Origin: Trueperaceae bacterium
GTDB lineage: Bacteria; Deinococcota; Deinococci; Deinococcales; Trueperaceae
Length of the DNA: 23,955 nucleotides
NCBI GenBank assembly: GCA_035703635.1
Contig: DASSXV010000014.1
Location: forward strand, 1 to 23,955
Direction of reading: 5' to 3'
The position numbers and the translations under genes are program-made. Position 1 is the stretch's first letter; the number at the start of each line of letters is the position of its first letter. Shown here piece after piece: positions 2,805 to 19,043 of this stretch. The notes below the pieces were generated by a model, which worked only from the letters and a program-made list of their open reading frames with translations, had not been told where the DNA came from and did no database searches.

Positions 2805-3749
2805 GTGCCATTGGAAACCAACTTGATGATCTCAGTACGGTACGCCCGGCCCGAGGATTACCTTGACGCCCATGACAAGCAAGACGACTCCTCACTAAGG
2901 TTCAACGAACGCCTGCTCCAAAGTGATGAGGGCAGTGCAGAAATCGATCCCTCCTTCGGCAGGGTAATCGCCAGAACCGCTGACAAGATCGTCGGCACCT
3001 GCGCTATCAGGAGCAACTGGGACGGCGTCGTCCAGCCCGGCCGCTTTTGGGTGACCATCTCGCTAGTCCCACGGTGGCACGGACGCGGCCTTGATACGCG
3101 GATGCTCCAGTACGCGATCGCCGAACTCGGGGCCGAGATAGGCGAACTCGCCACCTGCATCCGGGAAGACCACCTGCAGCACGCCGACTTCCTAGAGGAG
3201 TTCGGCTTCGCGGAGCGCTTCAGGTCGTGGGGCGCCCACCTCGACTTGAGAGTGTTCGACCCCACCCGCTTCGATGCAGTCATCGAGCGCCTCCAGCAGT
3301 CAGGGCTCAGGCTCATCTCCTACGCGGAACTCCGGTCAGATGAGAACGACCGGAAGCTCCTTGACCTCAAGCGGGACCTGGACCGCGACGTTCTCTCATT
3401 CGACCCGATCGTGCCGAGCGGCGGCGGCGACATCCTAGGAGACGAGTACCTCCCCGCAGGCCTGATAGTCGCCGTGAACCAGCAGGACGACTTCGTGGGA
3501 ATGGCCTCCCTAAGACGCACCTCCTCTGCTGAGATCATCGATTCCGGCCTCACAGGCGTGCGGCGCGAGTACCGTGGCCGCGGAATCGCTACCGCCTTAA
3601 AGGTGCGCTCGCTTACCGTCGCCAAGGAGCTAGGCGCGACCGAGAACGGAACCGGCGGCGGCGGAACCAACGCCCCCATGAAACGTCTCAACCAGAAACT
3701 CGGTTACGAGGTTGGCCCGGAATGGGTAACCCTGATAGGCCCACGCTGA
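2805..3749 (+). CDS. GNAT-family N-acetyltransferase with two GNAT domains
   Basis: Two acetyl-CoA motif A copies (VPRWHGRGLD; TGVRREYRGRGIATALK) and C-terminal NAPMKRLNQKLGY. True start may be ATG near 2826. Confidence 0.85.
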   Translation: MPLETNLMISVRYARPEDYLDAHDKQDDSSLRFNERLLQSDEGSAEIDPSFGRVIARTADKIVGTCAIRSNWDGVVQPGRFWVTISLVPRWHGRGLDTRMLQYAIAELGAEIGELATCIREDHLQHADFLEEFGFAERFRSWGAHLDLRVFDPTRFDAVIERLQQSGLRLISYAELRSDENDRKLLDLKRDLDRDVLSFDPIVPSGGGDILGDEYLPAGLIVAVNQQDDFVGMASLRRTSSAEIIDSGLTGVRREYRGRGIATALKVRSLTVAKELGATENGTGGGGTNAPMKRLNQKLGYEVGPEWVTLIGPR

Positions 3750-3769
3750 CCCGTAAGGGTTAAACGCTT

Positions 3770-3803
3770 GTTTGTGGCCGCTTCATAACCAGCGGCCACA
3801 AAC
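3770..3803 (+). terminator. Stem-loop, probable terminator of the GNAT gene
   Basis: Perfect 13-bp inverted repeat GTTTGTGGCCGCT-N8-AGCGGCCACAAAC, 20 nt after the stop. U-tract is weak. Confidence 0.55.
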
Positions 3804-3920
3804 TTGATGCCAACATTTACGCCGAAGACACGCAGGGACCCGAAGGTCTGTATAGCCACTTCTATGGGCCCAATCCACAGGTCGACCTTTCCCCTAGAGC
3901 GAGGCATGCCGGAGAGGCAG

Positions 3921-4072
3921 TGCTCTCAAATCCACTTCCCCACTCGCTTTCAACCTGCTATCATGTTGATTCCACTTATCGAAGCCAGCGTGGCAGCTAT
4001 ACATCGCGCCGCCATCGAGCAAGACATTTTCGGTCTCAATACTCTGCACCATCGATTCTCAATACCTGTGCA
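3921..4072 (+). repeat. Second, degenerate cluster of end-like repeats
   Basis: TGCTCTCAAATCCACTTCC (3921-3939; 16/19 to the 2604 copy), TGCTATCATGTTGATTCC (3956-3973), and TCTCAATAC twice (4034, 4057; 23-bp period). Confidence 0.5.
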
Positions 4073-4344
4073 GTCTTTACGACGGCTACCTGAAGCCCAA
4101 GCTTCTAATTGGCTGACTGTGCGGCCGATCCCTTGAAGAGCGGTCCTACGTTCGCTACACCGCCAGCAACGGTAAGAACGCACTCCGTGCCGCGTTCGTT
4201 TACAGCCATCTATGGACCTACCGCTAAGGAGCAAGGCGCCACTCCCGCCTCGGCTACCTTTCACCCCTGGAGTTCGAAGGTAGGCAAACTAGCGTCAAGA
4301 GCCAGCAGGTTGATAAGCTCGTAGCTGTTCATCAAAGCGGCTGA

Positions 4345-4749
4345 ACTCCAGAGGACTCCTCGGTAAACTTCGCGTACCTGGTCGCACTCCGCATCGGTAG
4401 CATCGCGCCGCTCCTCGCCCTCACCGGCGGGCAGCCGGGCGCCATCACCCACTGGCTCCTGACGCACCGCGAGCCGCGCGTGCGCGCCGCACTCGCCCTT
4501 AGCCGCAACATCCCCGTGTGGGCCTACCAGGCGCTCTTCGATGACACCCACCTGCGCGTCCGCGCCACTGCCCAGAAGTCGCCGCCGGCCCAACCTCCGG
4601 CGGCACACGCAAATGGTGTGGGCAGCCACTGCGACCCTAGATGCCGGGGTGCCGGCGCCACCCACCGACCCGACAGCACGCGCCGGGCGGTCACCTACCT
4701 GTCCTGTTCCAGCGCCCCGTCAGGAGCACCGCATCGGACCGACTGGTGA
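4345..4749 (+). pseudogene. 5'-truncated fragment of a leucine-rich-variant/HEAT-like repeat protein
   Basis: Open frame after TGA at 4342 reads ...HWLLTHREPRVRAALALSRNIPVWAYQALFDDTHLRVRATA. This resembles the LRV pattern D..VR.A.A.N...P...L..L..D...VR. No good start codon upstream of the motif. Confidence 0.4.
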
Positions 4750-5573
4750 TCCAAGATCAAGCGCACTCCCCGGCCCCGCAACACGCGAACCGGGTGAGAC
4801 GACGTCCCCTCATCCAAGGACAGGGGGGCCGGCCTCTCGACGCAGTTGTAGCTCAGGTCGACGGTATGCCCCCTATCGAAGCTCGGGTTCGACGCCAAGG
4901 GCGTCAGATCGCGGATGCGGTTGAGCGACAGGCCGAGGTGCCCCGGGGGCCTCTCCCAGTCGGCGAGGGCCGTGATGTCCGTCAACCCCGCGTACTGGAG
5001 TACCACCGTATCGACCTCGAGCTCGAGGAGAGCCTCGAGGCGCGCGATGCTCACCCCCGTCAAGTACAGCTCCTCCAGAACCGGAAGACTCGCTAACGGT
5101 TCAAGGTCCAGCTCGCCCTCGCTCACGATGTTGACGTACCTGAGGTTCGGTAGGCCTCTCAGCGGCTCGAGGCTCTCGACCGCATGCGGCTCGCTCGTAC
5201 CCGGGATGGGTAACGGAATCATCCGAAGGGTCAAGGCCTCCAAGCTCGTGGCGTACTGCAAACCCTCCAGCGAGCGCACCTTCTGGTGCGGTGTCGCGGC
5301 CTCCAAGCGCGTGAGGCGGGCCAGCAGCTCGCAGGGGACGGTGGTGGTCTCATCCGGCCCCTTGAGGTCCCCGACCGCCTCAAAGCCGAACTCCCACCCA
5401 AGCGACTCGTGGATCGCCCTTCTCAGGCCAGCGTCGGGGACGTGTAGGAACGCCGAATCGGCACAGGCCCCTCCTAGCACCTGCGCGCTCGCGACGGAGA
5501 TCCAGAGCGCTGCCACGGCGGCTAAGGCACCCACCGACCACCCTCTCGAAAGATATCGCTCACACCCCAACAC
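4695..5573 (-). CDS. Secreted leucine-rich repeat protein (internalin-like LRRs)
   Basis: Signal-like N-terminus (..ALWISVASAQ), cap 'VPDAGLRRAI', repeats SLEGLQYATSLEALTL, SLEPLRGLPNLRYVNI, DLEPLASLPVLEELYL, LSLNRIRDLTPLA, DLSYN. Confidence 0.8.
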   Translation of the reverse strand: MLGCERYLSRGWSVGALAAVAALWISVASAQVLGGACADSAFLHVPDAGLRRAIHESLGWEFGFEAVGDLKGPDETTTVPCELLARLTRLEAATPHQKVRSLEGLQYATSLEALTLRMIPLPIPGTSEPHAVESLEPLRGLPNLRYVNIVSEGELDLEPLASLPVLEELYLTGVSIARLEALLELEVDTVVLQYAGLTDITALADWERPPGHLGLSLNRIRDLTPLASNPSFDRGHTVDLSYNCVERPAPLSLDEGTSSHPVRVLRGRGVRLILDHQSVRCGAPDGALEQDR

Positions 5574-5700
5574 CTGCCCGCCTCATACTCAGAATTCCAC
5601 ACGGTCGCAGTGACAGCTTTCACAACGTCTAGTCGTAGCCTTGCGGAGAATCGTACCAAATCACGCGAGCCACTTCGCGGAATGATACTAGGGGGTGCTA

Positions 5701-7497
5701 ATGAGGGGGATTGTTCCAGTCGCGCTCATCACTATCAGCCTTCTGTTCATCGCCTGCACGCGCCAAGACGCGTACGGATTGCCACAAGACGAGTGGCAGG
5801 CCGCGTACGACGCGCTCTCTCCGGAGGAACAGGAAGCGGTACGTGCAGGGCGGTTGGTGTTTACCACAGGCACCTTCCACCCTGCACCAGTCTTGCTGCC
5901 CTACCCCAGCAAGACAGTCCTTTCCCCTCAGTACGTGGAGTCGTTCGCCTGTCCGGAAGTGCCCCTGGACGAATCCGAGTGGACCAGCTCAACTGACCTA
6001 GGTACGTTCTTCGGGAGCGCGATCGCGAACAAGCCCGGCCAGCGGTTCAACGCTGTCCTGTTTCAGTTCATCCTTCCTGCCCCAGAGGACGTCGACTTCT
6101 ACCTACCCGACGATCACGAAGCACAAGGTGCGTACTTGATGGCGCCGATATGGTCCGCGGATCCTCACCACTATCCCGTAGACGCAGGGCTGACGTACCA
6201 GAGGGTGGGCGGCACCTTCGACTGGTTCCCCTTCTCATACGACGCCGTGAACGGCTGGCAAGCAGAAGGTCAATGGCGGCTCAGGAACAAATACAGCGGC
6301 ACGGACGAGCCGCTGACCGGCGCCTTGGTACTCCGGGTGGCAGACGACGGTCAGCTAGAGCTCGTCATAGAAGCGACCGGCGACACGGAGTGGCTGAACG
6401 TCGACACCAACGCCCGCGATACTCAGCGCACTATCCAAGTCCCCAACATCCTAGGCGTGCCAGGCGACGGTGACGACGCGACATTCACAATCCAGATCAA
6501 CTACGGCAGCCAAAAATTCCCACCTACAGCCAACAACCGCATACCGGACATCGTCATCTACGACATGAAGGTCGCCATGTGGAACCCGGTCAACGGTACC
6601 TACAACAACGCCACTCCCTGGGACTTCACAGACCCCAACCAATCGGAATTCCTGATCATTTGCCCGTCTGACGGCATCGAAGAGGCCTACGAGGTCGACG
6701 GCGGGTCACCAACTGCAGAAGACCCAGAGAACGGTTTCAACATCAGCATCGACACCGCGACCAGTAACGTGCACCAGCCATGCGTAAACGTACGCCCCAC
6801 AGGCGACTATCACGTCTTGAACTTCGCCTACCACATGCCCTCCATCGCCGGGTCGTCGCGCACGTTCTTCGACTTACGGAACTGCGGCAGGGCCCCACGG
6901 ACCATCGACTTCACGATAGACGACTCCTGGGCGTCTCTCAGCCCGCCTGCCGTGACGGTCAACGCTGGTCCCTCCGAAAGGGTCTCCATCGTCCGCGCTC
7001 ACAACCCCTCTGGTGTCGACACCTGGTTCAACTGCGGCCAGTTCGGCCAAGTCATGCAAACCACTACGGTTCGCGCGCTCAACAGCGACACGGAAATACA
7101 CAGCTTCCCGTTCACTATCGACTGCACCGTTCCAAATAGCCACCAGATGTCAAGCGTCTTGATCAGGTGGGCAGAGGGAGCCTGGAGGCCGCCTACCGGG
7201 ACGCAGGGCCGCTTCTACAACACCTACTACACCTCGTCCACGCAATCCTGGTGCGACCGCTCCATAACCCCAAACCTCCGTAAGGTACGCAACTACGCCA
7301 CCTGGACCACCACCGTCGAGTACGGGGTTTACGACATCACTTCCGCGACGTACCTGCCTGGTTACACTTCAACGTATACGGTAAACATCGATGATGAGGA
7401 TGAATGGACGGACGACGACTTTATCGATGAGACTCTCCAGACAGTCCTGTGGTGGAATGAGGCTGTCGTTTTGTGCTGGAACGACGAACTAGACTGA
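5701..7497 (+). CDS. Large predicted lipoprotein of unknown function, beta-rich, with a probable BACON/Ig-like domain
   Basis: 600-codon ORF; MRGIVPVALITISLLFIAC is lipobox-like. FDLRNCG...DDSWASLSPPAVTVNAG..ERVSI resembles BACON/Ig-like strands. Confidence 0.75.
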   Translation: MRGIVPVALITISLLFIACTRQDAYGLPQDEWQAAYDALSPEEQEAVRAGRLVFTTGTFHPAPVLLPYPSKTVLSPQYVESFACPEVPLDESEWTSSTDLGTFFGSAIANKPGQRFNAVLFQFILPAPEDVDFYLPDDHEAQGAYLMAPIWSADPHHYPVDAGLTYQRVGGTFDWFPFSYDAVNGWQAEGQWRLRNKYSGTDEPLTGALVLRVADDGQLELVIEATGDTEWLNVDTNARDTQRTIQVPNILGVPGDGDDATFTIQINYGSQKFPPTANNRIPDIVIYDMKVAMWNPVNGTYNNATPWDFTDPNQSEFLIICPSDGIEEAYEVDGGSPTAEDPENGFNISIDTATSNVHQPCVNVRPTGDYHVLNFAYHMPSIAGSSRTFFDLRNCGRAPRTIDFTIDDSWASLSPPAVTVNAGPSERVSIVRAHNPSGVDTWFNCGQFGQVMQTTTVRALNSDTEIHSFPFTIDCTVPNSHQMSSVLIRWAEGAWRPPTGTQGRFYNTYYTSSTQSWCDRSITPNLRKVRNYATWTTTVEYGVYDITSATYLPGYTSTYTVNIDDEDEWTDDDFIDETLQTVLWWNEAVVLCWNDELD

Positions 7498-7498
7498 G

Positions 7499-7520
7499 CC
7501 TCATTCCAACAGGAACGAGG
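7499..7520 (+). terminator. Hairpin right after the lipoprotein stop
   Basis: CCTCATTCC-AACA-GGAACGAGG, one mismatch, no U-tract. Confidence 0.3.
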
Positions 7521-7910
7521 GCGACCATTCGGTCTTGGGAGTGCATCCCCATAGCGGTACTGGTTGTCGCAGAAAGGGGGGGACGACGTACCATCCTGCG
7601 AAACGCGGCGGGCACGCCGCCGCAACGGGAACGCTCTCTAGGGTCCAGCAGCCATACCGGCTAGTGAAGGGTCCGGCCAGTGTCGCGTGATCGGCCTGGC
7701 CGGACTCGCTTGGAGCCGACACCAAGTCCACCTTCAGACACGCATCGCACCATTGACGAGGCCGTCCCCTCCGGCATCACCCAGCCAGCGTACAGTCGAG
7801 TTCCGGCGCTTACCTGAGGGTCGGTAGCATTGGTACCACGTTCCTGTCCTCGTCGAGGCCCGTCGAGAGCGATTCCATACGTTGCCCTGGGCAATAGGGC
7901 CAAAGGTGGC

Positions 7911-8210
7911 ATAAGCTCGCGTTCCAAGAAGGCACGCCGTCAGCTCCAACAGCAGCGGCGCCAACAACGGCAGCACCAGAAGCGCCTCGCGCAGCACGTC
8001 AAGCAGACCGCCAAGAACCGCACGAAGCCCGATCTCACCGAGGAGTAACGGCAATGGGCCAACGAGCGGCTCAGCGAGTTCGCGGTGCCGTGCGGAGGCC
8101 TGGGTCAGTACGAGAGGAGGGATCTCAAGCACCTCCTCAAGGAGCTCGCGCCACCCAAGCTCGCTGACAAGCTCACCGCGGCTCAAGACCAGCACCGCAG
8201 GCTGCTTTGA
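7911..8210 (+). pseudogene. Decayed small gene with a basic Q/R-rich N-terminus
   Basis: RBS-like AAAGGTGG then ATA (possibly a former ATG). Reads SSRSKKARRQLQQQRRQQ...PDLTEE*RQWANERLSEF...QHRRLL*, with one in-frame TAA at 8046-8048. Confidence 0.35.
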
Positions 8211-8218
8211 AGCGTTTT

Positions 8219-8407
8219 TCATAGCACTTCTCGGGGGAAGTCGAGCAGCGAGTAGAAGCCCTGGATGTCGGTGAGGGTCACGGCGTCCAGGGCCGCTTTC
8301 GTGGCCAGGCTCAGGGCGGTATGGGTGGTGGCCGCCGCCCGCTTCAGGTGCGTCGTGAGCTGCGCGAACATGCTTTCGATCGGGTTATTGCAGAAGTAGG
8401 CATGCAT
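8219..8407 (-). pseudogene. IS630-family transposase C-terminal remnant
   Basis: AYFCNNPIESMFAQLTTHLKRAAA.T..AL..A...ALDAVT..DIQGFY is a degraded form of the IS630 P.YSPD.NPIE..F..LK..LR motif and tail. Confidence 0.7.
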
Positions 8408-8623
8408 GCGGTGTAGACCGTGGAGTCAGCGTGCTGGCTCATCTCATTACTCAAGATCCAATGTTGTGGCTGCACGTTCCTACCTCCGCAGACGTTTCAT
8501 TACTGGCGGAAGAGGTTCCCGGACAAGCTGGACCGCAAGCCCGCCATTACTGGACCCAACTGTAGACATGACGCTAGAACTTAGAACAGACAAGCGATGA
8601 ATCACGAAGTTTCAGGCAAGCCC

Positions 8624-8667
8624 CGAAGATGATCTGAGAGCACAACCCGGAACTTGAAGTGAGGATT
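8624..8667 (-). repeat. Inverted copies of the 19-bp end motif; candidate TnsB-binding sites
   Basis: Reverse complements: TGCTCTCAGATCATCTTCG (8624-8642; 14/19 to the 2604 copy) and AATCCTCACTTCAAGTTCC (8649-8667; 13/19, perfect TCAAGTTCC). A weaker copy lies near 8577-8595. Confidence 0.55.
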
Positions 8668-8726
8668 TCCTACTCTCGAAGGCACCCGACCAATCAACGC
8701 CCGCGAAGGCAAGCGGTTCCAGGGCG

Positions 8727-8824: not shown

Positions 8825-11368
8825 CTAAGGGTGGAGAAGGGATTCGCCGTACTCCAGGAGCGTGCCTTTCATGATCGGGGCCTGCTCGCGAACGAACTTC
8901 TGATGGATGCCGTAGTCCTGGTGAGTGTTTCGCACCAGCGCCTTGAACGCTGGTGAGTCACGTACGTCCTGTTGCATAAGTTCTGCCCAGATCCAGGCGG
9001 CCGCGTGTGCGCTACGTACGTTCCTTCGGCCGACATGCACGCCGGCGCACTTGCAGATGTCCCGCCACTCGGCTTCCGGAATGTTCGTGAAGCCGGCAAG
9101 GCGAGCACCGCGCTCCCTAAAGTCCACTCTCGCTTCGTTGCGCCCCAATGCCGCAGCAGAGGCTGTGAGGCGCTCCTCGAAGGCGGCCGCATGCTCACCG
9201 GCCCGTATCCGTTGTAATGCCGCCGAAACGCCGCCTCTGATGTTTCGTTCGTCGATGCCGATCAGCGCGCCGATCTGAGCCCTCGGCATGCTCAGAACTA
9301 GTTCGAGTAGCGCCACGGAGACCGCGGCGCGTCCGGTGGGCGCAGAGACGCCAAGCGCCTGGAAGAACCGTTCGAAGTGCGCGTCGTACTGGTCCCGCCA
9401 GAAGAGTTGAGGCACGTGTACTGGCCCGAACCCGTACCCTCCTTCCATGCCGTGGCGCTCCAGGATCTCCGGGCTGGCCCAGTACACGAACCCGTCCAGT
9501 TCACCGCCGTCGGCGAGGTACTGCACGTAAAGCGCCATCATGGCCGCGAACTCTGCCGTGGCGGAGTTCGCGAAGCGGAGGTAAGTCTCGCGCGAGGCCC
9601 CTTCGTTCCCTGTACGGAAGCGCAACGCAGGAGCGCCGCGCCAATCGCTGCCCGTCAACTGCTCCCACGCCATCGTTGCGGCGAACTCGTCTCGACCGCC
9701 CGCTAGACCGGGGTTCATGGTCGCCCGCTTGGCGATGAAGGCCCAGTCCACCGGCGGGACGCACGTGAAGGTGGCGAAGCGCGTCCGGCGCTGGGCATAG
9801 TCCACTAGCCGCTCGCTCGTCGACAGCGCTTCAGCCACGGCGTGCAGTTCAGCGAACGCCTCAAGGGCCGCGCCCCGTTCTCGTAACAGGAAGATGGCCT
9901 TATCGACACCGCCGCGAACGGCGCTTCTTTCTACTCCGAGCGCTTTGAGCGCTTCCGCGCGCGAACCGCCGACCACTAGCTCCGCGAGAAGGGCTGACAG
10001 GGTTAGCCGTACGGTCTCCTCCCTGAGGGCCAGGCCATCGAAGAACTTCCGGAACCGGGAGGCGTACTCGCCGCGCCAGAAGAGCTGGGGGATGTGGCGC
10101 GGTTCGAACGCGTAGCTGCCCTTGGAGGCCGTCTGGGCGGGACGGCGTGGATCGAACAGGTACTCGCGCTTCGTGTCGAACGTGAGCGAATACAGTTGCA
10201 TGAAGAACGGCGGCAATCCCAGCCGGGTGATGAAGCTCGAGGTCCCGCCGCCACGTGCGCTACCCATCTCGAGCAAGGGCGCCATTCTGTGAGCGGCCTC
10301 CATGACCGATCCAGCATCGAGGTACGCGGTGGCTGCGCTCAGCAGCCCGCCCATCAAGGCGGGGTCGGCTGGTGCGAAGGCAGTCATCTTCTGCGGCGCG
10401 ATGCGTCGCTTCTCGCCGGCCTGGGCGGCGACCTCCTTGCTTCGCTGCAGCCTAGCGAGAGTCGCATCCCGCGTGTCGAACCAGCGCTCCAGGCTCTCTT
10501 TCACCTCGCGTGGCGCTGTCTCTCCGACCAGGCTCGACACATCCTTGGCCGATGCCGCGTACATGATCAACGCCACCGTTCCGCGCAGCACGCGGAAGAA
10601 CTCTGGCGCCGCCACCGTGGTACCCGCCAGCGTCGCCGAGCCCGCCTCCAAGACCTCGTCAATCCGAGCCTGCACCCGCGATAGCTCCGACCCGGGTTGT
10701 ACTGGTACGACGTCGACCGTCCTGAGGTCGTGCCTACACTGGCCCGCTCTTACGCCGCGCTTGCCGCTCGAGGGGCCCGTGTTCGTGCACAATCCAGGCT
10801 TGGGAACTTGGCTTCCGAACATGGGCCGCAGTTGACCGTCGCGCCGCCAGGCGGCGAAGCGCAGCTCGCATTGCGGGCACTCTGCCGCCAGGAGGTTCGA
10901 GTGCTTCACGCACATGAACGACCACGGCAGCTTCCACGCCACCCGCCACGCGCCGCCGTCCTCCTCCATGCAAGCAGGACAGAGGTGCGAGCCGGAGGCG
11001 TACACCCACTCGCTAAGCCCGAGGGCCCCGAGTTGCGTCACCTCGCCCCGGTAGAGCGCGCTGAAGTCGAGGCAGACATCGTGGTACCGCTCCAACAGCA
11101 GCGCCCTCGCTTGGGCGGTGGTGAGATGCGTGGCGCGCGCGAAGGCCGCCAGGGCTTCGGGAGCGAGGTACGCCCCGTAGCCGGATGGCACGTCGCTCAT
11201 CCGCTCGGTGCTCGTGATGCCGACGCGCTGGAGGAGGGTGATGAGTGGAACGTCGAGGTGGTGAGCCAAGCGGTCGATATAACTGGCGAACCATTCCCCC
11301 GCCACTGGCCTAAGGGAACGCGGTAACGGCATGGGGTGCCGCGAAGGCGCGGGTGGCAGTGGGTTCAT
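8825..11368 (-). CDS. tniQ: TniQ/TnsD-family target-selector protein, 847 aa, with a duplicated C-terminal domain
   Basis: N-terminal LP...RP..GE...SYI.RLA; CPAC...WRVAW.LPW.F.C.KH..LL...CPQC zinc-finger pattern; follows tnsC. Confidence 0.9.
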   Translation of the reverse strand: MNPLPPAPSRHPMPLPRSLRPVAGEWFASYIDRLAHHLDVPLITLLQRVGITSTERMSDVPSGYGAYLAPEALAAFARATHLTTAQARALLLERYHDVCLDFSALYRGEVTQLGALGLSEWVYASGSHLCPACMEEDGGAWRVAWKLPWSFMCVKHSNLLAAECPQCELRFAAWRRDGQLRPMFGSQVPKPGLCTNTGPSSGKRGVRAGQCRHDLRTVDVVPVQPGSELSRVQARIDEVLEAGSATLAGTTVAAPEFFRVLRGTVALIMYAASAKDVSSLVGETAPREVKESLERWFDTRDATLARLQRSKEVAAQAGEKRRIAPQKMTAFAPADPALMGGLLSAATAYLDAGSVMEAAHRMAPLLEMGSARGGGTSSFITRLGLPPFFMQLYSLTFDTKREYLFDPRRPAQTASKGSYAFEPRHIPQLFWRGEYASRFRKFFDGLALREETVRLTLSALLAELVVGGSRAEALKALGVERSAVRGGVDKAIFLLRERGAALEAFAELHAVAEALSTSERLVDYAQRRTRFATFTCVPPVDWAFIAKRATMNPGLAGGRDEFAATMAWEQLTGSDWRGAPALRFRTGNEGASRETYLRFANSATAEFAAMMALYVQYLADGGELDGFVYWASPEILERHGMEGGYGFGPVHVPQLFWRDQYDAHFERFFQALGVSAPTGRAAVSVALLELVLSMPRAQIGALIGIDERNIRGGVSAALQRIRAGEHAAAFEERLTASAAALGRNEARVDFRERGARLAGFTNIPEAEWRDICKCAGVHVGRRNVRSAHAAAWIWAELMQQDVRDSPAFKALVRNTHQDYGIHQKFVREQAPIMKGTLLEYGESLLHP
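8837..10114 (-). repeat. Protein-level tandem duplication within TniQ (aa 419-618 vs 645-844)
   Basis: Ungapped alignment at an offset of 226 aa; 64/200 identities counted by hand. Copy 1 at nt 9515-10114, copy 2 at nt 8837-9436. Confidence 0.92.
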
Positions 11369-12537
11369 GAGGCATTGAGGAGGCGCGCGACCGCTTCCGG
11401 GGAGTCCTTGATGGCCGCGAGGGCCGCCTTCTTCTCGGCGTAGTAGCGTTCGGCGCCCTCCGCGAGCCGGATGTTTTCAAGGCCAGCCCGGGACAGGGTC
11501 TCACTGCCGTCCCGGATCGCCGCGTTGGCGGCGGCGCGCACCAGCCGGATCAGGCTGCCGATGCCGCCTTCGGTACGGAGGTAGAGGTAGCGCTCCTGCT
11601 GCACCAGCCAGCCGGGCCTGTTCTCGATCAGGCACAGGTGCTCTTCGACGCTCGCGAGGAACTCCAGCCACGCCGACTTGCCCGCCAGATGGACGTCGTA
11701 CGGGAACGGGTCGACCTTGTGCAGAGCGAAGCGGTACTGGGTCTGGGTGAAGCGGCCCTTCCCCCCGGTGCGGCTGTCCATCAGCAGCACCGAGTCCTCG
11801 CAGTTGATGCCGGCGTAAACGAACGTCGCGGGGATCAGGTTCGCGAGTTCCTTGATGAGGTCGTTGACGCTGTCGGCGCTCTTGTTGCCGCGGTGCAGGT
11901 TGTGGATGTCATCGAGGATGAACAGGCTGGTGCCGCACTGCACGGCGATGTCGTGTAGCCGGCTCTTCAGCTTCGCTTCGGAGTCGCGCTCCGCGAAGGG
12001 ATTGCCGTAGAACTTGTTCAATGCCTGCAGCAGCTTCTTGGGCGTGGTGCTCGAGGGAACGCTGCTGTAGACCACCGGGATGAACTCGACGTGGGTTCCG
12101 TGCAGGCCCTTGCCCTCGTAGGCGCGCTGCGCCAGCCCCTCGTAGATGCGGCCCATGTGCAGCACGATGGTGGTCTTGCCGAGCGTGGCTTGCCCGTCCA
12201 CGATCGCGCCCTGACGGGCCCCGGGAGCGGTGCGGAGGTTGTCCCACGCGAGGCGGATCACCTGGTCGTGAACCTTCTTCATGGTGCGGGAGGTGAGCGG
12301 CCCGAAGGTGTTGTGGTACATCTTCCGCGCCAGGTCGAACGAGGCCTTCTCCGCGTCGCTCATCGCCTGGTACTGCGCCATGGAAGGCAAGAGCGGCTTC
12401 TTCGGATCGGGCCTGGCAACGAACTCGCGCCACGCCACGTAGTTCTCGGGGTTCTCCCGCGCGAACGGAACGTCCTCGGCCAACAGGTCGGAGAAGTTGG
12501 CAAGCATGTTGTCCACCACGTCGGCTATGGTCATCAA
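11365..12537 (-). CDS. tnsC: TnsC/TniB-family AAA+ ATPase (transposition regulator)
   Basis: Walker A GQATLGKT, Walker B LFILDDIH, TFVYAGI, and RT.G.IGSL..LVR.AA..AI..G.E tail. Confidence 0.9.
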   Translation of the reverse strand: MMTIADVVDNMLANFSDLLAEDVPFARENPENYVAWREFVARPDPKKPLLPSMAQYQAMSDAEKASFDLARKMYHNTFGPLTSRTMKKVHDQVIRLAWDNLRTAPGARQGAIVDGQATLGKTTIVLHMGRIYEGLAQRAYEGKGLHGTHVEFIPVVYSSVPSSTTPKKLLQALNKFYGNPFAERDSEAKLKSRLHDIAVQCGTSLFILDDIHNLHRGNKSADSVNDLIKELANLIPATFVYAGINCEDSVLLMDSRTGGKGRFTQTQYRFALHKVDPFPYDVHLAGKSAWLEFLASVEEHLCLIENRPGWLVQQERYLYLRTEGGIGSLIRLVRAAANAAIRDGSETLSRAGLENIRLAEGAERYYAEKKAALAAIKDSPEAVARLLNAS

Positions 12538-12570: not shown

Positions 12571-14781
12571 CTAGACGCTGAAGTCATCGGGGTCCAGCAC
12601 GGCGAGGCGCTTACGGGGCTCGCTCCCGGGCTCCTCAGGCTCAGGGTCGAGCTCGCCTGCGGCCGGGAAGCCCTGAACGGTCGCGCCTTCGGGCCCGAGT
12701 GAGCCCGCATTCTGCAGGGGCTCGTCGGGGCCGAAGAGGTCATCGAGGTCGGCTTCCGCGTCGGGCTCCATCACGCTGTCAACCTGCCGCTGGGGCGCGG
12801 CGCGCCGCCGCTCCTCATGCGCCTCGATGGTGCGCATGGCGTGCACGGCGGCAAGGCGGCGCTCCTTGCGACCCTCGACCTCCAGCGCCGCGATCCTATC
12901 CAGCAGGTCGTCGAGCGCCTGGTTCAGCTCCCTGCGGCGGTCCGCCGCCGTGGCGCCACCGCGCGCGATGACCAAGGACTTCGCGTAGCTGAGGGTGGCG
13001 TCGTTGAAGGGGCGATTGACGGGGGAAGCGCCATGCCGGGGGATGGCATGCCACTCGCCCAGCGTAGGATCGTGGAAGAACACCTCGGACAGGTCGCGGG
13101 GGTCGTAGCGGATCGGCCAAGCGCCGTCGCGGATGTTTGGGTAGGGCGAGGGCGCGTCGCGCCACTCGTCAAGGACCTCGCTGGTGTAACGCAGGCCGCG
13201 CAGGTCGATGCCGTAATGCTGGATCTTGCGCCACTCCGTCGGCAGCAGTTCGAAGTACAGGTTGGGATCTGGCAGCACGTACGTGAAGCCCGCCCGCATT
13301 AGCCCTTCCTCGTACATCCGATTGGGGCTCAGGTCCATCTTGGGAAGGTCGGGGATCTCGAGACCGTCGTGGGTGCGGTTCTGCCAGTAGGTGGCGACCC
13401 AGCCGGCGAACTCGGCTTCGATCTCGTCGATGAAGAAGAACGCTTCGCTTTCGACGTCCTTGCCGCGGGAGTACACGTCCGGGCCCTTGTAACCCTTGAG
13501 GTTCACCACGAAGTTATCGCGGATGGTGCGGAACAGCCGCTCCACCTGCGCCTTGTCCGTCGGGGTGTAGGGGCGGGCGAGCTGCAGGTCTATCCCAAGC
13601 CGCACGCACGCGTCCCGGAACGCCCGCGAGATGAACACGCGCCCCCGGTCCACCCACACGGCTTCCGGGTTGAGGAACGGAACCCCAGCCAGACCGCCTA
13701 GCGCTTGCCCGTCGAGGTTCTGATCCGCATCGCCCAATAGCTCGACCACGATGGCTTCCGGCAGGCCCACGTATGACCAGCGGGCGTTCTCTGGCCACCC
13801 GTTACGCATGAACTTGGGCCTCACCACGTCGTAGAGCAACAGCGCGGCGTCCACGCCCTTGGTGGAGACGGGCGTGAACCGCCACGCCACAAGCGAGTTG
13901 GTGTACAAGTCCATGGCGATGGTCAACTGCACCTGCACCCACTTGAAGGTCAACGGATCAAGAGCGAACGCGTCCAAGGAGGTCGAGTCGATCAGCACGA
14001 CTTCGCCCGGACGCACCACCTGGAAGTAGCGGTAGAGGTTGCTAGGGCGGTTGGCGATGCTGCGGCGCGCCTTGGCCGCCCCGAAGGTGCCGCGCCCGGC
14101 CGCCATCCGGTCGACAAGCTTGTTGAACGTCTTCTCGGACGGCAACTCGACGGCTTCGTCCGGGAAGAAGTCCTTGAGCTTCCGCCTCGTGCGCCGCCGC
14201 AACTGCGTCTTGGGGATGTTCGACTCGTCCGTCAACTCGTCCAGCACCGCCCCGAGAGCCAACTTGACGCGGTCGTCCACCCGCGCGAAGTCCTTCAGCG
14301 GACTCAGTTTGCGCTCGTCCACGAGGCCCACTAGGCCGCGCTCCTCGTACTTCTGCTTGTAGCGCCAGAGCGTGCTGAAACCGATCCCCAACTCGCGAGC
14401 CTTGGCGGTAGTCCGCTGCCGCACGGTAGTGAACTCAGGATCGTATTGCGGACTCGGCTCATGTTCGAGCGCCAGCACCCTGGAGCCGTGCTGGAACCCG
14501 GTTAGGGCCTCCATGAGGTGCCGCTCCAGCTCCTCGGCTGCCCGCAGCAGTTCCGGCGGCACCGTATCCAGGTAGACGGGGCTCGACTCCCCCTCCCCGG
14601 GCTCAACGTCCGACAGGACCTTGAAGTCGGGCGCCTCGGTGAGGACGCCCATTAGGATCCGCGCCCGCTTGCCGCGCGGGTCCTGCACCTCGACCTCGCC
14701 GGCGTAGAAGCCCGTGATGGTCCAGGATTTTCCATCCCACCAGATCCTGGCGCCGACCTCGAGCTTCGCTCGGTACCTCAT
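12571..14781 (-). CDS. tnsB: TnsB/TniA Mu-like DDE transposase
   Basis: N-terminal SH3-like strands, HTH (ARELGIGFSTLWRY), DDE triad in LIDST / VDRG / KAQVERLF, Mu C-terminal region (IRYDPRDLS), acidic tail. Confidence 0.92.
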   Translation of the reverse strand: MRYRAKLEVGARIWWDGKSWTITGFYAGEVEVQDPRGKRARILMGVLTEAPDFKVLSDVEPGEGESSPVYLDTVPPELLRAAEELERHLMEALTGFQHGSRVLALEHEPSPQYDPEFTTVRQRTTAKARELGIGFSTLWRYKQKYEERGLVGLVDERKLSPLKDFARVDDRVKLALGAVLDELTDESNIPKTQLRRRTRRKLKDFFPDEAVELPSEKTFNKLVDRMAAGRGTFGAAKARRSIANRPSNLYRYFQVVRPGEVVLIDSTSLDAFALDPLTFKWVQVQLTIAMDLYTNSLVAWRFTPVSTKGVDAALLLYDVVRPKFMRNGWPENARWSYVGLPEAIVVELLGDADQNLDGQALGGLAGVPFLNPEAVWVDRGRVFISRAFRDACVRLGIDLQLARPYTPTDKAQVERLFRTIRDNFVVNLKGYKGPDVYSRGKDVESEAFFFIDEIEAEFAGWVATYWQNRTHDGLEIPDLPKMDLSPNRMYEEGLMRAGFTYVLPDPNLYFELLPTEWRKIQHYGIDLRGLRYTSEVLDEWRDAPSPYPNIRDGAWPIRYDPRDLSEVFFHDPTLGEWHAIPRHGASPVNRPFNDATLSYAKSLVIARGGATAADRRRELNQALDDLLDRIAALEVEGRKERRLAAVHAMRTIEAHEERRRAAPQRQVDSVMEPDAEADLDDLFGPDEPLQNAGSLGPEGATVQGFPAAGELDPEPEEPGSEPRKRLAVLDPDDFSV

Positions 14782-15503
14782 GCCATCAACTCGCTCGTAG
14801 ACAGGTAGACCAGCGAACCTTCTTCAAGGATCGCCGTCATGTCGAACTTCAGGACCCGTTTCCAAAGGAGGTGGAATAACGCTGGGCGCGCCAGGAGCGG
14901 TTGCTCCATCTGGGCGAGCAGTTGGCGTACGGACACCGCTCCATCGGCACAGCCGCCGACCAACTCTCTCGCCGTCGCCTCGAACCGCGGTGGGCGGCGC
15001 CGGTACCCGGCCAGCCACTTCACGTTGGCGAGGTAAGTGTCATCGGGTTCGGTGCGCACCTCGAAACCCCACCCCAGGTGCTGGCACGCGACTTCCGTGC
15101 TCTCGAAAGCTCGCCGGTTCCGGCTCGCGCCTGCCTGCTCTGACCGCTTCACGTCCACCACCGTGACACCACCACCCTCTCGCCAAACCAGGAAGTCGGG
15201 CACGTGCCTAAACGTCTCCCCACTTCGCTCGAAATGAAGCATGAGAGGTTGGGCGAGTACGCCGATCACTCCGCCATCGAAATCGAAACCCATCAGGGTG
15301 AACATCTCGAGACGACTTGCGTAGGGCACGAGCTGGTTGAGGCCACTGAACCAGTAAAAGCCGGGAAGGTGGCCCTGCCCCTTGTAGGCGGGAATCTTGC
15401 GAATGGAGTGATACCCGATAAAGTCGCGGCCAGCAGCGTCGTTTATAGGGACCGTTTCGTGAAGCACGAGTCGGTTGTCAAGGAACGAAACTGAGATCTT
15501 CAT
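14778..15503 (-). CDS. tnsA: TnsA-like heteromeric transposase endonuclease subunit
   Basis: R..P.YKGQ.H.PG.YW, S.LE, DFD..V....AQP, HVPDF...VDVK (PD-D/ExK), NVKWLAGYR, LFHLLW C-terminal domain. Likely start is ATG at 15503. Confidence 0.88.
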   Translation of the reverse strand: MKISVSFLDNRLVLHETVPINDAAGRDFIGYHSIRKIPAYKGQGHLPGFYWFSGLNQLVPYASRLEMFTLMGFDFDGGVIGVLAQPLMLHFERSGETFRHVPDFLVWREGGGVTVVDVKRSEQAGASRNRRAFESTEVACQHLGWGFEVRTEPDDTYLANVKWLAGYRRRPPRFEATARELVGGCADGAVSVRQLLAQMEQPLLARPALFHLLWKRVLKFDMTAILEEGSLVYLSTSELMA

Positions 15504-15532
15504 GTGCGCCCCCAAGCCGCGTAATGTAAGGA

Positions 15533-15567
15533 TACCTTAGATTATAAGGTACCGGCGCAGGGCGCAA
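15533..15567 (-). promoter_or_regulatory. Putative tnsA promoter with a palindrome overlapping the -10 box
   Basis: Minus strand TTGCGC-N15-TATAAT (perfect -10 at 15546-15541). Palindrome TACCTTA-N5-TAAGGTA at 15533-15551. Confidence 0.55.
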
Positions 15568-15593
15568 CTCGGCTGGTAGAGCCGAACCAAGCC

Positions 15594-16025
15594 TTACCCA
15601 TGTCGGACGGCGAGGAAGCAGGCGTCGTCCCTGCCTGCTCGTTTGCGTTTGCCTTTGAGCCCGCCGTTACTGGGCACTCGCTTCAACGGTGAGAGAGCGA
15701 GGTGGCGTACGATCACCAGGTTCGCTTGCGCGTTCTCCTTCCGCGCACGGCTCCGGTCCTCACCGAACACGATGCTCAGCACGCAATGCAGGCCGTTGTC
15801 GATGCCCCGATGCCGCCGCACCGCGTACGCCACCTTCTCCGCATTAGTGTGGTTCGTGAGGAAGTAACGCTACTGCACGCTCACCTGCCCATCAGTAGTG
15901 CGCGTGCCGCGCACTTGGGCCACGCTGCGCAAGTCGCGCCAGGCGGCGCGCTCGCGGGCCTCCAGGCACTCCGGGTCGGTGCGCAACCAAGTTTCGCGCA
16001 GCTCGACTCGTCCGTGCCCTGCTGA
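15594..16025 (-). pseudogene. ISAs1-family transposase C-terminal remnant with an internal stop
   Basis: GHGRVELR...WRDLRSV..V...R...*RYFLTN...VRRHRGIDNGLHCVLSIVFGED.SR.R..NA..N is the ISAs1 HGR.E.R / R.HW.IEN.LHW.LDV.F.ED pattern, decayed. TAG at 15870-15872. Confidence 0.88.
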
Positions 16026-16109
16026 AGCCGGACAAGGCGATTTCCGCCCCCCAACACTCGTACCCCACTCCAATGTTTGCACCGCTAGTGTTTGTTCGGG
16101 AGGTAACCC

Positions 16110-16517
16110 ATGATGCAAGCAGCCGACATGTTTCGAACCCACCCGCGCCAATCCCAGGTCGAAATCTCCGTGCTGGCGAAGTGCGTCGACGAATGCTACG
16201 CCTGCGCTCAGACCTGCACCGCCTGCGCCGACGCCTGCCTAGGGGAAGCGAACGTGGCTGAGCTGGTGCGCTGCATCCGCCTCAACGAGGACTGCAAGGC
16301 GGCGTGCCTCGCAACGGGCGAGATGCTCTCGCGCGTGACGGAGGCCGACTGGAGCGTCCTGCGCGCGCAGGTGCGGGCGTGCCTCACGGCCTGCCAGGTG
16401 TGCGGCGCCGAGTGCGAGAAGCACGCCGGGCACATGGAGCACTTCCGCGTATGCGCCGAGGCCTGCCGCGCGTGCGAGCAGGCGTGCCAGGCCCTGCTGG
16501 ACGCCATCCCGGCCTGA
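16110..16517 (+). CDS. Cys-rich four-helix-bundle copper-binding protein (DUF326 / Csp-like)
   Basis: 17 Cys in CxxxC/CxxC spacing, CIRL..DC motif, C..EC.KH...H..CA.AC..C. RBS GGAGG; no signal peptide. Confidence 0.88.
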   Translation: MMQAADMFRTHPRQSQVEISVLAKCVDECYACAQTCTACADACLGEANVAELVRCIRLNEDCKAACLATGEMLSRVTEADWSVLRAQVRACLTACQVCGAECEKHAGHMEHFRVCAEACRACEQACQALLDAIPA

Positions 16518-16584
16518 GCCATGGACGCGAGGGTGTGCTGCGAGCCGTGCGCCCATAAGTCAATGCTGAAGATGCTTTGGCTCG

Positions 16585-17943
16585 TCAGGCGCTGACCTGC
16601 CCGAGCGACTCGAGGTGACCCGTCAGGCGGCGCGCTTCGGCCGCGCGGAGGGCCAACGCCGTCTCGATGGCCTCCTGCCAGCGCTGGCGTTCCGCGAGCA
16701 CCCTCCGCGCCCGCTGCAAGATGGCGCTAACGTCAGCGGCCGTGGGCTGCTCGGCGAACACGTGGATGTCGGGGTAGCCGAGCATCTGCTGCACGCTGGC
16801 GGTCTTGTGCGAGTCGGCGCCCAGCAGCACGCCCGGCACGCCGCCCAAGCCCGCCAGGATGGCGGGGTGGTAACGGCCCGTCACTACCAGTTCGGCGTGC
16901 GCCAGGATTTCGGTGGCCACCATGACGTTGGTGTCCGCCGGCACCAGCGGCAGGCCCAGCTCGTGCGCCAGCTCCTCCAGGAAGGCGTCGCCCGTCGAGC
17001 TCACCGTCACCACCAGCGGGTACCCCAGCTCCGGCAGCGCCTGAAGCAGGCGCCGGTACGAGGCGGCCGCCCGCTTAGGGTCCTTGGCGGCCTCCGAGCT
17101 GCCGCCCACGCAGATGTACGGCCGTTGGAAGTCCCAGGTCCCCAGCCGATCGGGGCGTTCGTGGAAGGGAGTCAGGTACTCGGGGCGCGCCAGGAGGTCG
17201 CGCCCGCGCCCTACGCGCCCCTTCCAGGCGAAGACGCTGTCGGGTACGTAAACCGAGGCCACCTCGGGCGCCACCTCGCGGAGGAACGCCTGCGACCAGG
17301 GGTCGCGCGTCGTCACCAGGCGCGCCTGGGGCAGCAGCCGCCGGGTCGCCGCCACGGTGGCGGCGTTGCGGGGCCCGTTGGCCGGGTCGGCGACCAGCGC
17401 GTTGACGTAGGCGAAGGGCACGTCCGCCTCGTGCGCGAGCTGCATCACGGCCAGGTGGAAGCGCTGCTCCAGGCGCGAGGGGGTGGTGAAGATCATGCTC
17501 CCCTCGCCGTTGACGACCACCGCGTCCGCGCGCTCCACGCGCGCGATCCACTCCGCCAGCGGCTCGCGCCCTGAGCGGCGCCAGCGGCGCACCGTCTCGG
17601 CGGGGTCGTCGCTGACGGCGTCGCGGACGCCCAGGCGCTCCAGTGACAGGCGCGTGCGGCCGCCGCGCGCCAGGCCGGCCACGGCGAGCCGGGCGAGGGC
17701 CGGTTGCCGCAGGAGGCGGCCCGCCACCGGCCCGTCGGCCAGCGCCACGCGCGAGCGCACCTCGGCGTCCAGCACGCGGTCGGAAGGCGAGAGGCCGGCG
17801 GCGGCCATGAGTTCGAGCAGCGCCATGGTGGTGGCGCGGCTGCCCCAGTTGGCGTTGTCGCGGTTGTCCGACACCAGCAGCACGCGCGGCCCGGCGCCGG
17901 CCGCGGCCTGCTCGATCTGGGCGTCAGCGGCCGCCTGGATCAC
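16585..17943 (-). CDS. Polysaccharide pyruvyl transferase family protein
   Basis: N.NWG..A, ADAVVVNGEGS, TRDPWS, VPDSVF and LVVTGRYH..I.A...GVP motifs. Confidence 0.8.
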   Translation of the reverse strand: MIQAAADAQIEQAAAGAGPRVLLVSDNRDNANWGSRATTMALLELMAAAGLSPSDRVLDAEVRSRVALADGPVAGRLLRQPALARLAVAGLARGGRTRLSLERLGVRDAVSDDPAETVRRWRRSGREPLAEWIARVERADAVVVNGEGSMIFTTPSRLEQRFHLAVMQLAHEADVPFAYVNALVADPANGPRNAATVAATRRLLPQARLVTTRDPWSQAFLREVAPEVASVYVPDSVFAWKGRVGRGRDLLARPEYLTPFHERPDRLGTWDFQRPYICVGGSSEAAKDPKRAAASYRRLLQALPELGYPLVVTVSSTGDAFLEELAHELGLPLVPADTNVMVATEILAHAELVVTGRYHPAILAGLGGVPGVLLGADSHKTASVQQMLGYPDIHVFAEQPTAADVSAILQRARRVLAERQRWQEAIETALALRAAEARRLTGHLESLGQVSA

Positions 17944-18334
17944 GACGCCCTCTCACGCTCTCGTTAGCGCGAGCGACGAGGGGCGCGCAACCAGGCAAGT
18001 GGGTGGCCGCAGGCCTGTGGGTGGGGCGAACCTTCCTATCGGTGGCATGTTGTCGTCCTGGTCGAGGCTACCACTAGCGGCCGCGCGGGCGCTGTGCGCT
18101 GGCGTCGGGGGCTCCCGCCGTGCGGGGCGCGAGTTGAGGTGAGCGCTCGCTGCGAAACGGTGCGCCTGATAGCCGCCGCCTCACCGCGACCAACGGCGCT
18201 CAATACCTGCTTGCCCTTCCTCCCAGGGGTGCCGTAAGGCCGCGCCCAATAGCGCGCGGGCCGACGCCTGGCGGGGGCGGTGAGCAGACGGCCGGGCACC
18301 GTCCGCGTTCATAGTCCAGCGGGCGGGAGTGCAT

Positions 18335-18988
18335 CTAATGGACCTCGGCCCCGCTGGTAGTTGCGCTCGCCACCATGTCCTGCACGAACTGGGCGACGAA
18401 CTCGTCCTCGCCGGCCTCGAGCAGCTCCTGCGGCGAGGTGCCCCCCAACTGCGGATGCGGCGACGTCAGCCACAGCTCCAGGCCCTCCTCGTCGGCGCCA
18501 ACGAACCGCGCCAGGCTCTCGCGTATTACCTCCAGGGGTGACGCGCCCGGCAACTGTTCGACCGGCGCGAGGCGTTCGATCCGCACGCTGATCTGCGCCC
18601 CGAAAGCGTCGAGGATGCGCTGCGCCCTCTGGGTGCTGATGTTCCGGTAACCGTTGCGCTCGTCCCGGCAGACCAGCGGGGCGCTCGTGCCCAGCGCGGC
18701 GGCGAGGCGCTGCTGCGTCCACCCCCGCTGAGAGCGCAGTTCGGTCAGCCAGCGGCCGATGTCGGTTAGGCGGCTGAGCGGTTCGAGCTCCACTGGGCGC
18801 TCGCGTTCGTACGCCTCGACCTCCCTGCGGAGCTCCGAGTGATAGTCAAGGGCCGGCCGCATGAGGCGCTCGACCTCTTCGGCCGCCAGGTCGGCGCGGC
18901 TCAAGGCCTCCCGCAGTCGATCCAGGTGCTCGCTCTCGTCCCGCAAGCGTCGCGTGGCGCGGGCGTACTCCGCCGCCGTGGTGATCAC
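18335..18988 (-). CDS. XRE-family HTH protein fused to a C-terminal Xre/MbcA/ParS-like antitoxin domain
   Basis: AGGAGG RBS before GTG at 18988 (MITTAAEY). HTH: LRSQRGWTQQRLAAALGTSAPLVCRDERN. C-terminal WLTSPHPQLGGTSPQELL motif. Confidence 0.75.
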   Translation of the reverse strand: MITTAAEYARATRRLRDESEHLDRLREALSRADLAAEEVERLMRPALDYHSELRREVEAYERERPVELEPLSRLTDIGRWLTELRSQRGWTQQRLAAALGTSAPLVCRDERNGYRNISTQRAQRILDAFGAQISVRIERLAPVEQLPGASPLEVIRESLARFVGADEEGLELWLTSPHPQLGGTSPQELLEAGEDEFVAQFVQDMVASATTSGAEVH

Positions 18989-19043
18989 CGCGTTCCTCCT
19001 AATCCGTTCCAGCCCTCCCAGAGCCATAGCCAGCGCGCTCCCG

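Follow-up and report, generated by a model that had tools for sequence, protein, structure and literature searches.

A TnsD-like target selector from Trueperaceae in which a helical C-terminal module is present in two diverged copies

We analysed a whole contig of 23,955 nucleotides from a Trueperaceae bacterium (NCBI GenBank assembly GCA_035703635.1, contig DASSXV010000014.1; G000:C11 in our numbering), which we call the window. It carries a Tn7-like element that, as we delimit it, runs from 8561 to about 15609, and this stretch holds four tns genes alone. They form an operon, tnsA-tnsB-tnsC-tniQ, in which gene ends overlap or nearly abut and tniQ comes last, directly after tnsC. Our subject is the protein encoded by tniQ: it contains two diverged copies of a helical tail of about 205 residues that its relatives carry once, and this double form is a rare variant. 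An earlier note on this DNA had pointed out the repeat from the letters alone; it left the strand of tniQ (minus) unstated. The genes of the element and the parts of the TniQ protein are as follows, where ORF stands for open reading frame, HMM for hidden Markov model, HTH for helix-turn-helix and dN/dS for the ratio of nonsynonymous to synonymous substitution rates.

8825..11368, minus strand: tniQ/tnsD-like gene, 847 amino acids plus stop; an ORF with Pfam TniQ (PF06527)
10154..11332, minus strand: TniQ core, residues 13-405; helical domain, putative Cys/His zinc-finger region, second helical domain
9503..10123, minus strand: module 1, residues 416-622; module HMM E 6.4e-94; eleven helices match module 2; dN/dS 0.18-0.20
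9449..9502, minus strand: inter-module linker, residues 623-640; two short helices in the model
8831..9448, minus strand: module 2, residues 641-846; module HMM E 4.1e-96; dN/dS 0.13-0.17
9878..9961, minus strand: putative HTH-like unit of module 1, residues 470-497; from the model, corresponds to the stretch of module 2 matched by DnaA domain IV and MarR
9200..9283, minus strand: putative HTH-like unit of module 2, residues 696-723; from the model and its VIA-align match to DnaA domain IV
11365..12537, minus strand: tnsC/tniB AAA+ gene, 390 amino acids; Pfam TniB E 1.2e-12, AAA_22 E 9.3e-11
12571..14781, minus strand: tnsB transposase gene, 736 amino acids; Mu-transpos_C E 6.7e-09, and rve E 9.7e-05, below its cut-off
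14778..15515, minus strand: tnsA gene, 245 amino acids; Pfam Tn7_TnsA-like_N E 1.2e-06, 29.4 bits against a cut-off of 26.5

The tniQ product is best read as a TnsD-type selector that chooses the target of a Tn7-like element by protein alone. The earlier note had called it a TniQ-type selector, and this is borne out by the Pfam match, by the operon context and by the fold of the core. The TniQ profile matches with E 4.2e-19 (70 bits against a cut-off of 27) and spans profile positions 1-141 of 142, although it is limited to residues 16-159 of the protein; residues 157-414 had no Pfam match at E up to 10, and phmmer with the whole protein matched no PDB chain at E up to 1. The structural comparison reaches further. 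We used a full-length AlphaFold2 model (alignment of 92 rows) with a predicted local distance difference test score (pLDDT) of 94.0 and a predicted template-modelling score (pTM) of 0.85. With VIA-align, its core matches E. coli Tn7 TnsD in the TnsD-TnsC-DNA complex (8v32_J; Z 12.9, 188 aligned residues, root-mean-square deviation [rmsd] 3.5, model residues 13-261), 7oxd (Z 12.8), the type I-F TniQ 6lnd (Z 12.2, 249 aligned residues, model residues 13-403) and the type I-F TniQs 9gs9_J and 6uvn_I (Z about 12, model residues 13 to about 417). The top Foldseek match is also 8v32_J (E 6.8e-3, probability 0.99). Across 92 aligned family members, C130, C133, C153, C164, C167, C194 and C211 of the core are at least 90% conserved and H156 is invariant; these residues are a putative zinc finger.

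The earlier note had also stated that the window lacks a second TniQ, and indeed just one ORF with a TniQ core is present. Its statement that there is no TnsE or Cas gene can be kept in a narrower form: neither family was found among the 16 window ORFs scanned with Pfam, and that scan was not exhaustive. There were no CRISPR-type repeats among the largest repeat families of the window.

The repeat itself is easy to see. At a fixed offset of 226 residues, residues 419-618 and 645-844 are identical at 64 of 200 positions, as the note had counted, but the best local alignment has two small gaps rather than none (BLASTP of residues 415-640 against 641-847: 35% identity over 186 residues, E 4e-33, 4 gap positions). 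All of the motifs that the note had quoted are in the repeat (H.PQLFWR, RGGV, VD[YF]..R and W..L...D.R..PA). Self-comparison, which the note had proposed as a check, leaves offset 226 standing alone: the best 200-residue window at this offset has 65 identities, versus 29 for the best window at any other offset from 20 to 599. A word-index search returned five homologues (842-866 amino acids, 43-99% identical over the query region), and because all five keep the two-part tail, the repeat is not an assembly artefact of this contig.

To ask how common the double form is, we built a profile of the module from five sequences (alignment A2: the window's two modules, the one module of a relative from the Trueperaceae, and a module each of P0005 and P0006) and searched 1.84 billion representative proteins. 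There were 856 matches at E up to 0.001, 383 at 1e-10 and 107 at 1e-30. We then re-scanned the best 150 of the 856 representatives with the module profile and a core profile, with these results:

Full core plus one module: 83 representatives, mostly 585-650 amino acids, with the module at about residues 400-600
Full core plus two modules: 9 representatives
Partial core plus two modules: 1 representative
Partial core plus one module: 29 representatives, short
No core plus one module: 28 representatives, short

Many of the short proteins with one module are probably fragments. The repeat unit is thus the ordinary C-terminal module of a sizeable TnsD-like family. The note had allowed that two modules might already be the norm for the clade; with 83 one-module and 9 two-module proteins among 92 full-core representatives, the double form is the minority. 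In a sample of 364 genomes from the phylum, the module is present in 26, of which 19 have the one-module form and 7 the double form. These seven are all at least 92% identical to the window's protein (five are complete and two end at contig ends). Other lineages retain the two-module architecture at 20-45% identity, and one such protein is annotated as "TniQ family protein [Dehalococcoidia bacterium]".

A maximum-likelihood tree of 106 module sequences sheds light on the history of the duplication. Fragments and the near-identical P0002 were left out, and a single module was used only if its protein had 570 amino acids or more and 170 or more profile positions were matched. In 12 double proteins, the first modules group together (Shimodaira-Hasegawa-like approximate likelihood-ratio [SH-aLRT] support 99), the second modules of the same 12 group together (96), and these two groups unite (90). 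Because of this grouping, the tree points to one old in-frame tandem duplication of a single module, from which all 12 proteins would descend, followed by divergence. Also, both modules carry R where 88% of 78 single modules have W.

Two more double proteins, P0062 (794 amino acids) and P0152 (803 amino acids), are placed among the single modules instead. In each of them, the protein's own two modules are sisters (support 100 for P0062 and 99 for P0152), and the repeat period is about 200 residues, versus 226 in the main clade. The two modules of P0062 share 43.8% identity, and neither exceeds 29.4% with any other sequence in the tree, so an independent duplication in P0062 is likely. P0152 looks like a separate duplication too, but it is the less clear case because its modules are 30.6% identical to each other while the first of them reaches 33.8% to another sequence. 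An approximately unbiased (AU) test of a tree in which all 14 first modules form one clade, a group that was chosen after the tree had been seen, did not reject it (log likelihood worse by 60.4, p 0.079).

Both modules are under purifying selection: between the window's tniQ and the 92%-identical copies at loci L001 and L002, dN/dS is 0.17 for the core, 0.18-0.20 for module 1 and 0.13-0.17 for module 2. Both also keep much of what the family conserves. In 78 single modules, 19 positions reach a conservation of 80% or more; of these, 74% are retained in module 1 and 76% in module 2 (means over the 12 double proteins). The two copies are not equal in other ways. Counting the positions that at least 10 of the 12 proteins conserve, we find 20 that are common to the two modules, 1 that is conserved but different, 12 in module 1 only and 25 in module 2 only. 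The earlier note had described the presumed recognition helices as diverging, and they do differ, but the divergence is asymmetric: in module 2 the helix has the pattern G.S.A.Q...A, with five positions conserved in at least 10 of the 12 proteins, whereas in module 1 it is variable, with one conserved position. Similarly, the median isoelectric point (pI) is 6.3 for module 1, which is often not basic, versus 9.0 for module 2 and 9.2 for single modules, and the median net charge across the clade is -1.5 for module 1 and +3 for module 2. Both modules of the window's protein itself are basic (pI 9.2 for module 1 and 8.7 for module 2). As a separate observation, the tniQ gene of L020 (genome G013) differs from the window's in a mosaic way, with a synonymous divergence that rises from 0.01 in the core through 0.06 in module 1 to 0.20 in module 2, which suggests recombination between element variants inside tniQ.

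The predicted structure of the tail is confident. Module 2 modelled alone (36-row alignment) has twelve helices, a pLDDT of 96.0 and a pTM of 0.90, and in the full-length model the helices of module 1, shifted by 226 residues, coincide one for one with those of module 2. The linker between the modules is predicted to be ordered (pLDDT 95-96 over residues 621-650), and the weak point of the model is the junction between the core and the first module (pLDDT 70 over residues 411-420). At each of the two segments that the note had quoted as HTH-like, the model has a short helix, a 4-residue turn and a longer helix: residues 470-476 and 481-497 in module 1 (with a break at 485-486) and residues 696-702 and 707-723 in module 2. 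When we compared the module model with 48,161 chains by exhaustive VIA-align, there were 27 matches with Z of at least 5, all on module residues 7-108. They include DNA-bound DnaA domain IV (3pvp_A, Z 7.2, 86 aligned residues, rmsd 4.1; 1j1v_A, Z 6.1), many winged HTH proteins of the MarR family (Z 5-6.2) and sigma-factor domains (Z about 5); 1j1v_A also aligns with residues 647-740 of the full-length model (Z 6.4). TnsD's own C-terminal domain is not among the listed matches of the module. In the ESM Atlas, the best score for module 2 was 0.89, below the line of 0.9, and some clusters of sigma-70 region 4 scored 0.86-0.87, which are leads only. The uniform kind of the matches and the geometry of helix, 4-residue turn and helix support a putative HTH-like unit in each module. 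The note's claim stands as to geometry at both segments, while the fold scores behind it are middling (Z 6-7).

The boundaries of the element matter for what the protein might do, and the two sides are very different.

8561..8700, plus strand: left end; starts TGTAGACATGACGC and has TGT; the inner limit is approximate
15516..15609, plus strand: tnsA-side region where the right end is expected; none recognisable

At the left end, homology to L001 and L002 stops at 8556-8561, and a distant locus of G003 (a complete genome from the same genus) is 99.8% identical to positions 3964-8560 of the window and stops exactly at 8560. We also considered whether the 85 bp to the left might belong to the element and rejected this, as there are two independent homology breaks at 8560/8561. 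The identical left terminus was found in 13 rows (two pairs represent the same place and one place is at a contig end), and it has 9 different outside flanks, three of which are the ends of other Tn7-like elements 4-12 bp away. Neighbouring element ends at that spacing are the pattern of tandem arrays. While the left end abuts these 9 sequences (at loci that include L001, L002, L020, L029, L030, L033 and L035), the tnsA side is always near one Cys-rich ORF and has no canonical right end. This picture could be due to independent insertions, to one-ended rearrangements from the left end, or to chimeric assembly.

On that side there are two types of flank: one in the window, L007, L009, L030 and L033, and another in L001, L002, L010, L011, L013 and L031. 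Homology between the types fades 52-95 bp beyond the start of tnsA, and both reach the same Cys-rich ORF of 135 amino acids within 250-500 bp. The putative right terminus at 15609 is an uncertain boundary. We rejected an imperfect terminal repeat, CGTCCGACATGGG (read inward from 15609), as weak and without a terminal CA; repeat searches for an inverted repeat between the two sides gave nothing beyond chance 11-mers; and the site core of the left end has no second copy at up to 2 mismatches in the window and 6 related loci. Extending the element to include the Cys-rich ORF did not help, as no end was found beyond that ORF either. Nor could G001 serve as a clean empty site: it shares positions 15619-18014 of the window, but its left flank is unrelated and could not be linked to that of any copy. 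Related neighbouring elements in L035 and L037 do have canonical right ends.

How might the double form work? By analogy with the solved TnsD-TnsC complexes, the N-terminal core (about residues 13-405) would recruit TnsC. The C-terminal 430 residues are two paralogous, all-helical modules of about 205 residues, derived from one old in-frame tandem duplication of the single C-terminal module of the family. Both modules may lie side by side on the target DNA, and the selector would then read, on the right-end (tnsA) side of the point of insertion, a site roughly twice as long as that of its one-module relatives. Module 2 would be the main reader, of ancestral type, since it is basic and its recognition helix is strongly conserved; module 1 would add lineage-specific or weaker contacts, since it is more variable and is often not basic. 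We favor this mechanism with a confidence that is a little short of even. A broader proposal is that duplication of the module is a recurrent route to a single-chain double reader, with at least two origins (the main clade and P0062). The diverged copies would recognise two DNA segments, adjacent or separated, and so a much longer or a composite site, and new targets could be reached without a second selector gene. This we put forward tentatively, as a possibility that we would not bet on.

Several results weigh against the idea that both modules read DNA. No match of the module among the 48,161 chains reaches a Z of 8, and by the tool's own warning, the Z scores for its putative HTH lie in a range that helical proteins often reach. 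No informative match covers the module's second half (about residues 109-207). With Foldseek, which the note had proposed as a check on each repeat, the module had no match at E up to 0.001 in the PDB (best 1.5) or in a viral library (best 0.83). Pfam, at E up to 10, matches neither module; a single NCBIfam match at E up to 1 is at chance level; and the module profile against PDB sequences at E up to 10 gave 5 chance-level matches. The low pI and charge of module 1, together with its fewer conserved positions, fit a module that no longer reads DNA. The element's structure is also a problem. There is no terminus of the form ...ACA on the tnsA side in the window and 6 related loci, and there is no matching 5-bp target-site duplication (CCAAC precedes the left end and GCGAG follows 15609). 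With no canonical right end, there is no target site to compare with those of the one-module relatives, and the window's copy may be immobile.

A different account, which we consider unlikely but worth taking seriously, is that only module 2 binds the target DNA, while module 1 is a spacer or a protein-contact domain. It would contact the core, TnsC or a host factor, and set the distance from the DNA-bound module to the core. The inequality of the copies suits this account: the pI of module 1 is often acidic or neutral (median 6.3) and that of module 2 is like the pI of single modules (9.0 versus 9.2), the recognition helix is conserved at five positions in module 2 and at one in module 1, and 25 positions are conserved only in module 2 versus 12 only in module 1. 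On the other hand, the window's protein has a basic module 1 (pI 9.2). Module 1 also keeps as many of the family-conserved positions as module 2 does (74%), its dN/dS is as low as that of the core, and it keeps the HTH-like geometry in the model.

It is also conceivable, though we find it improbable, that each module has an attachment site of its own, so that one protein would serve two targeting pathways. Relatives at L005 and L044 carry two selectors as separate genes while the window's element has one, and dual tniQ-tnsD loci are common (1,048 of 3,953 loci) and have several origins (Faure et al. 2023, PMC10293859). However, the order predicted for the linker (pLDDT 95-96) and the pTM of 0.85 for the whole chain suggest one fixed body rather than independent arms. 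In the solved TnsD complexes, insertion occurs at a fixed distance from the bound site via one TnsC-recruiting core (PMC13251919), and two modules at different distances from the core could not both give a fixed insertion distance. Furthermore, the near-identical copies whose tnsA side was recovered all lie near the same Cys-rich ORF, with no sign of a second class of site. Least probable of all, in our view, is that the element is a relic: an immobile copy fixed at one locus, whose double tail has no present role in targeting. This would account for the missing right end and target duplication, for the at least 92% identity of all copies in the 364 genomes (5 complete and 2 ending at contig ends), and for the same Cys-rich ORF adjoining every copy with a recovered tnsA side. 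Yet all four genes are intact in several strains, dN/dS across tniQ is 0.13-0.20, and other lineages have kept the two-module architecture at 20-45% identity. Also, the 9 sequences that abut the left end, three of them other Tn7-like ends, look like the result of past insertions.

We note some other features of the flanks. The Cys-rich ORF (16110-16517, plus strand) has a weak match to TIGR04401, the Csp1 four-helix-bundle copper-storage family (E 1.6e-05, 25 bits against a cut-off of 100), and strains that share 98.6% identity in the host flank share 87% in this ORF, so its variation follows the element and not the host. At 8539-8555 and 15659-15675, and nowhere else in the genome, a 17-mer, GCCCGYCRTTAMTGGRC, is present in direct orientation. 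The first place is 5 bp beyond the left end and the second some 50 bp beyond the putative right boundary; there are 3 copies in G003 and 1 in G001. A palindrome, ACCTTAGATTATAAGGT (15528-15552), is conserved 15-35 bp upstream of the start of tnsA. The same site is present in L001 and L002 and upstream of the neighbour's tnsA in L037, in differing surroundings, and it may be an operator or promoter element.

Farther out, the block of at least 4.6 kb to the left of the element (3964-8560), which includes a 600-amino-acid ORF (5695-7497) with no Pfam match, has its counterpart in G003:C1 (L028) at about 1.748 Mb, 160 kb away, and is likely mobile or rearranged. By their motifs, the short frames at 15594-15869 (minus strand) and 8219-8425 (minus strand) look like remnants of a transposase C-terminus, ISAs1-like and IS630-like respectively; Pfam gave nothing for them at E up to 0.01. 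To the right, a 2.5-kb stretch (16520-19042) is missing from L001 and L002. It contains a polysaccharide pyruvyl transferase gene (16585-17943, minus strand) and a gene for an Xre-type HTH protein with an MbcA/ParS antitoxin C-terminal domain (18335-19027, minus strand).

Tn7-like elements can acquire new attachment sites by several known routes: the duplication of a whole tniQ/tnsD gene, the capture of other DNA-binding partners, and the gain or loss of single HTH domains. If our favored mechanism is right, then duplication of an entire reading module within the chain is a further route. The family would then offer a natural case in which to test how a reading domain, by its length and composition, sets the length and specificity of the target. 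And if both modules do read DNA, the one-module and two-module relatives would be a matched system in which to dissect, and perhaps re-engineer, protein-guided insertion.

Among the relatives, the single gene with two modules is found in the window, L001, L002 and L037, and other arrangements also occur. In L005 of genome G020, a core-only TniQ (409 amino acids, 3134-4360) comes directly after tnsC and a one-module TniQ (613 amino acids, 9962-11800) lies 5.6 kb downstream. L044 (9902-13762) has two tandem core-plus-module genes, of 633 and 602 amino acids. On two metagenome contigs (L042, 2990-5083, and L043, 3-1853), the core and the module are adjacent ORFs with a single in-frame stop between them, which is either a split selector or a case of read-through or a pseudogene. 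The one-module element of G020 has a canonical right end, TGTAGGGAAC, with tnsA adjoining; it starts 1 nt after the stop of an upstream host gene, a 423-amino-acid ORF which we presume to be pilC-like. The two-module element of L037, 44% identical, is found about 200 bp past the 3' end of a 601-amino-acid ORF, with no clean right end seen. The one-module relatives, which have about 600 amino acids (for example P0007 of L005 in G020, 34% identical to the window's protein over 611 residues), have the same core and module; they differ in having one module rather than two, and some of them are accompanied by another selector gene.

TnsD of E. coli Tn7 has 508 amino acids, whereas the window's protein has 847. 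The two have in common the fold of the core, the position after tnsC and the general plan, a TniQ core followed by a helical C-terminal region with HTH units, which are putative in our protein (PDB 8v32, and 8glu for TnsD(1-318) with TnsC). They differ in that the structural match ends at residue 261 of the window's protein, in that no PDB sequence matches it at E up to 1, and in that its C-terminal module is of a separate family and is present twice.

More generally, TnsD C-terminal regions fold as several HTH domains (PMC10293859), and the available parts of four sources jointly describe such tails as strings of HTH domains (PMC10293859, PMC13251919, PMC11837452 and bioRxiv 10.1101/2025.07.27.667033). 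In these parts of the TniQ/TnsD literature we found no in-chain duplication of a whole TnsD tail, and the supplements of PMC10293859 may catalogue long forms. The nearest parallel is AvTnsD, from the type I-B1 CRISPR-associated transposon of Anabaena. According to the preprint (PMC13251919), its C-terminal region comprises HTH3-HTH6, of which HTH4-6 make base contacts, and two extra domains lengthen recognition upstream in glmS. That extra domains, compared with E. coli TnsD, extend the contacted DNA is the very principle that we propose for the window's protein. The extras of AvTnsD are a zinc finger and one HTH of other origin, however, whereas here the whole C-terminal unit has been duplicated; and for AvTnsD the target is known to be glmS and the DNA contacts have been solved, while the window's protein is known from sequence and models alone.

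The dual tniQ-tnsD arrangements surveyed in PMC10293859 resemble the window's protein in that duplication is the route to a second reading unit. In those loci the whole gene is doubled and each copy has its own TnsC-recruiting core, whereas here just the module is doubled, within one chain. Finally, in the cyanobacterial TnsD variants described in PMC11837452, loss of a C-terminal HTH accompanies a change of target, so that, as we suggest for the window's protein, the gain or loss of a C-terminal DNA-binding unit tracks a change in targeting. The cyanobacterial unit is about 60 amino acids long and the change is a loss, with no tandem repeat, while the Trueperaceae protein has duplicated a module of about 205 amino acids.

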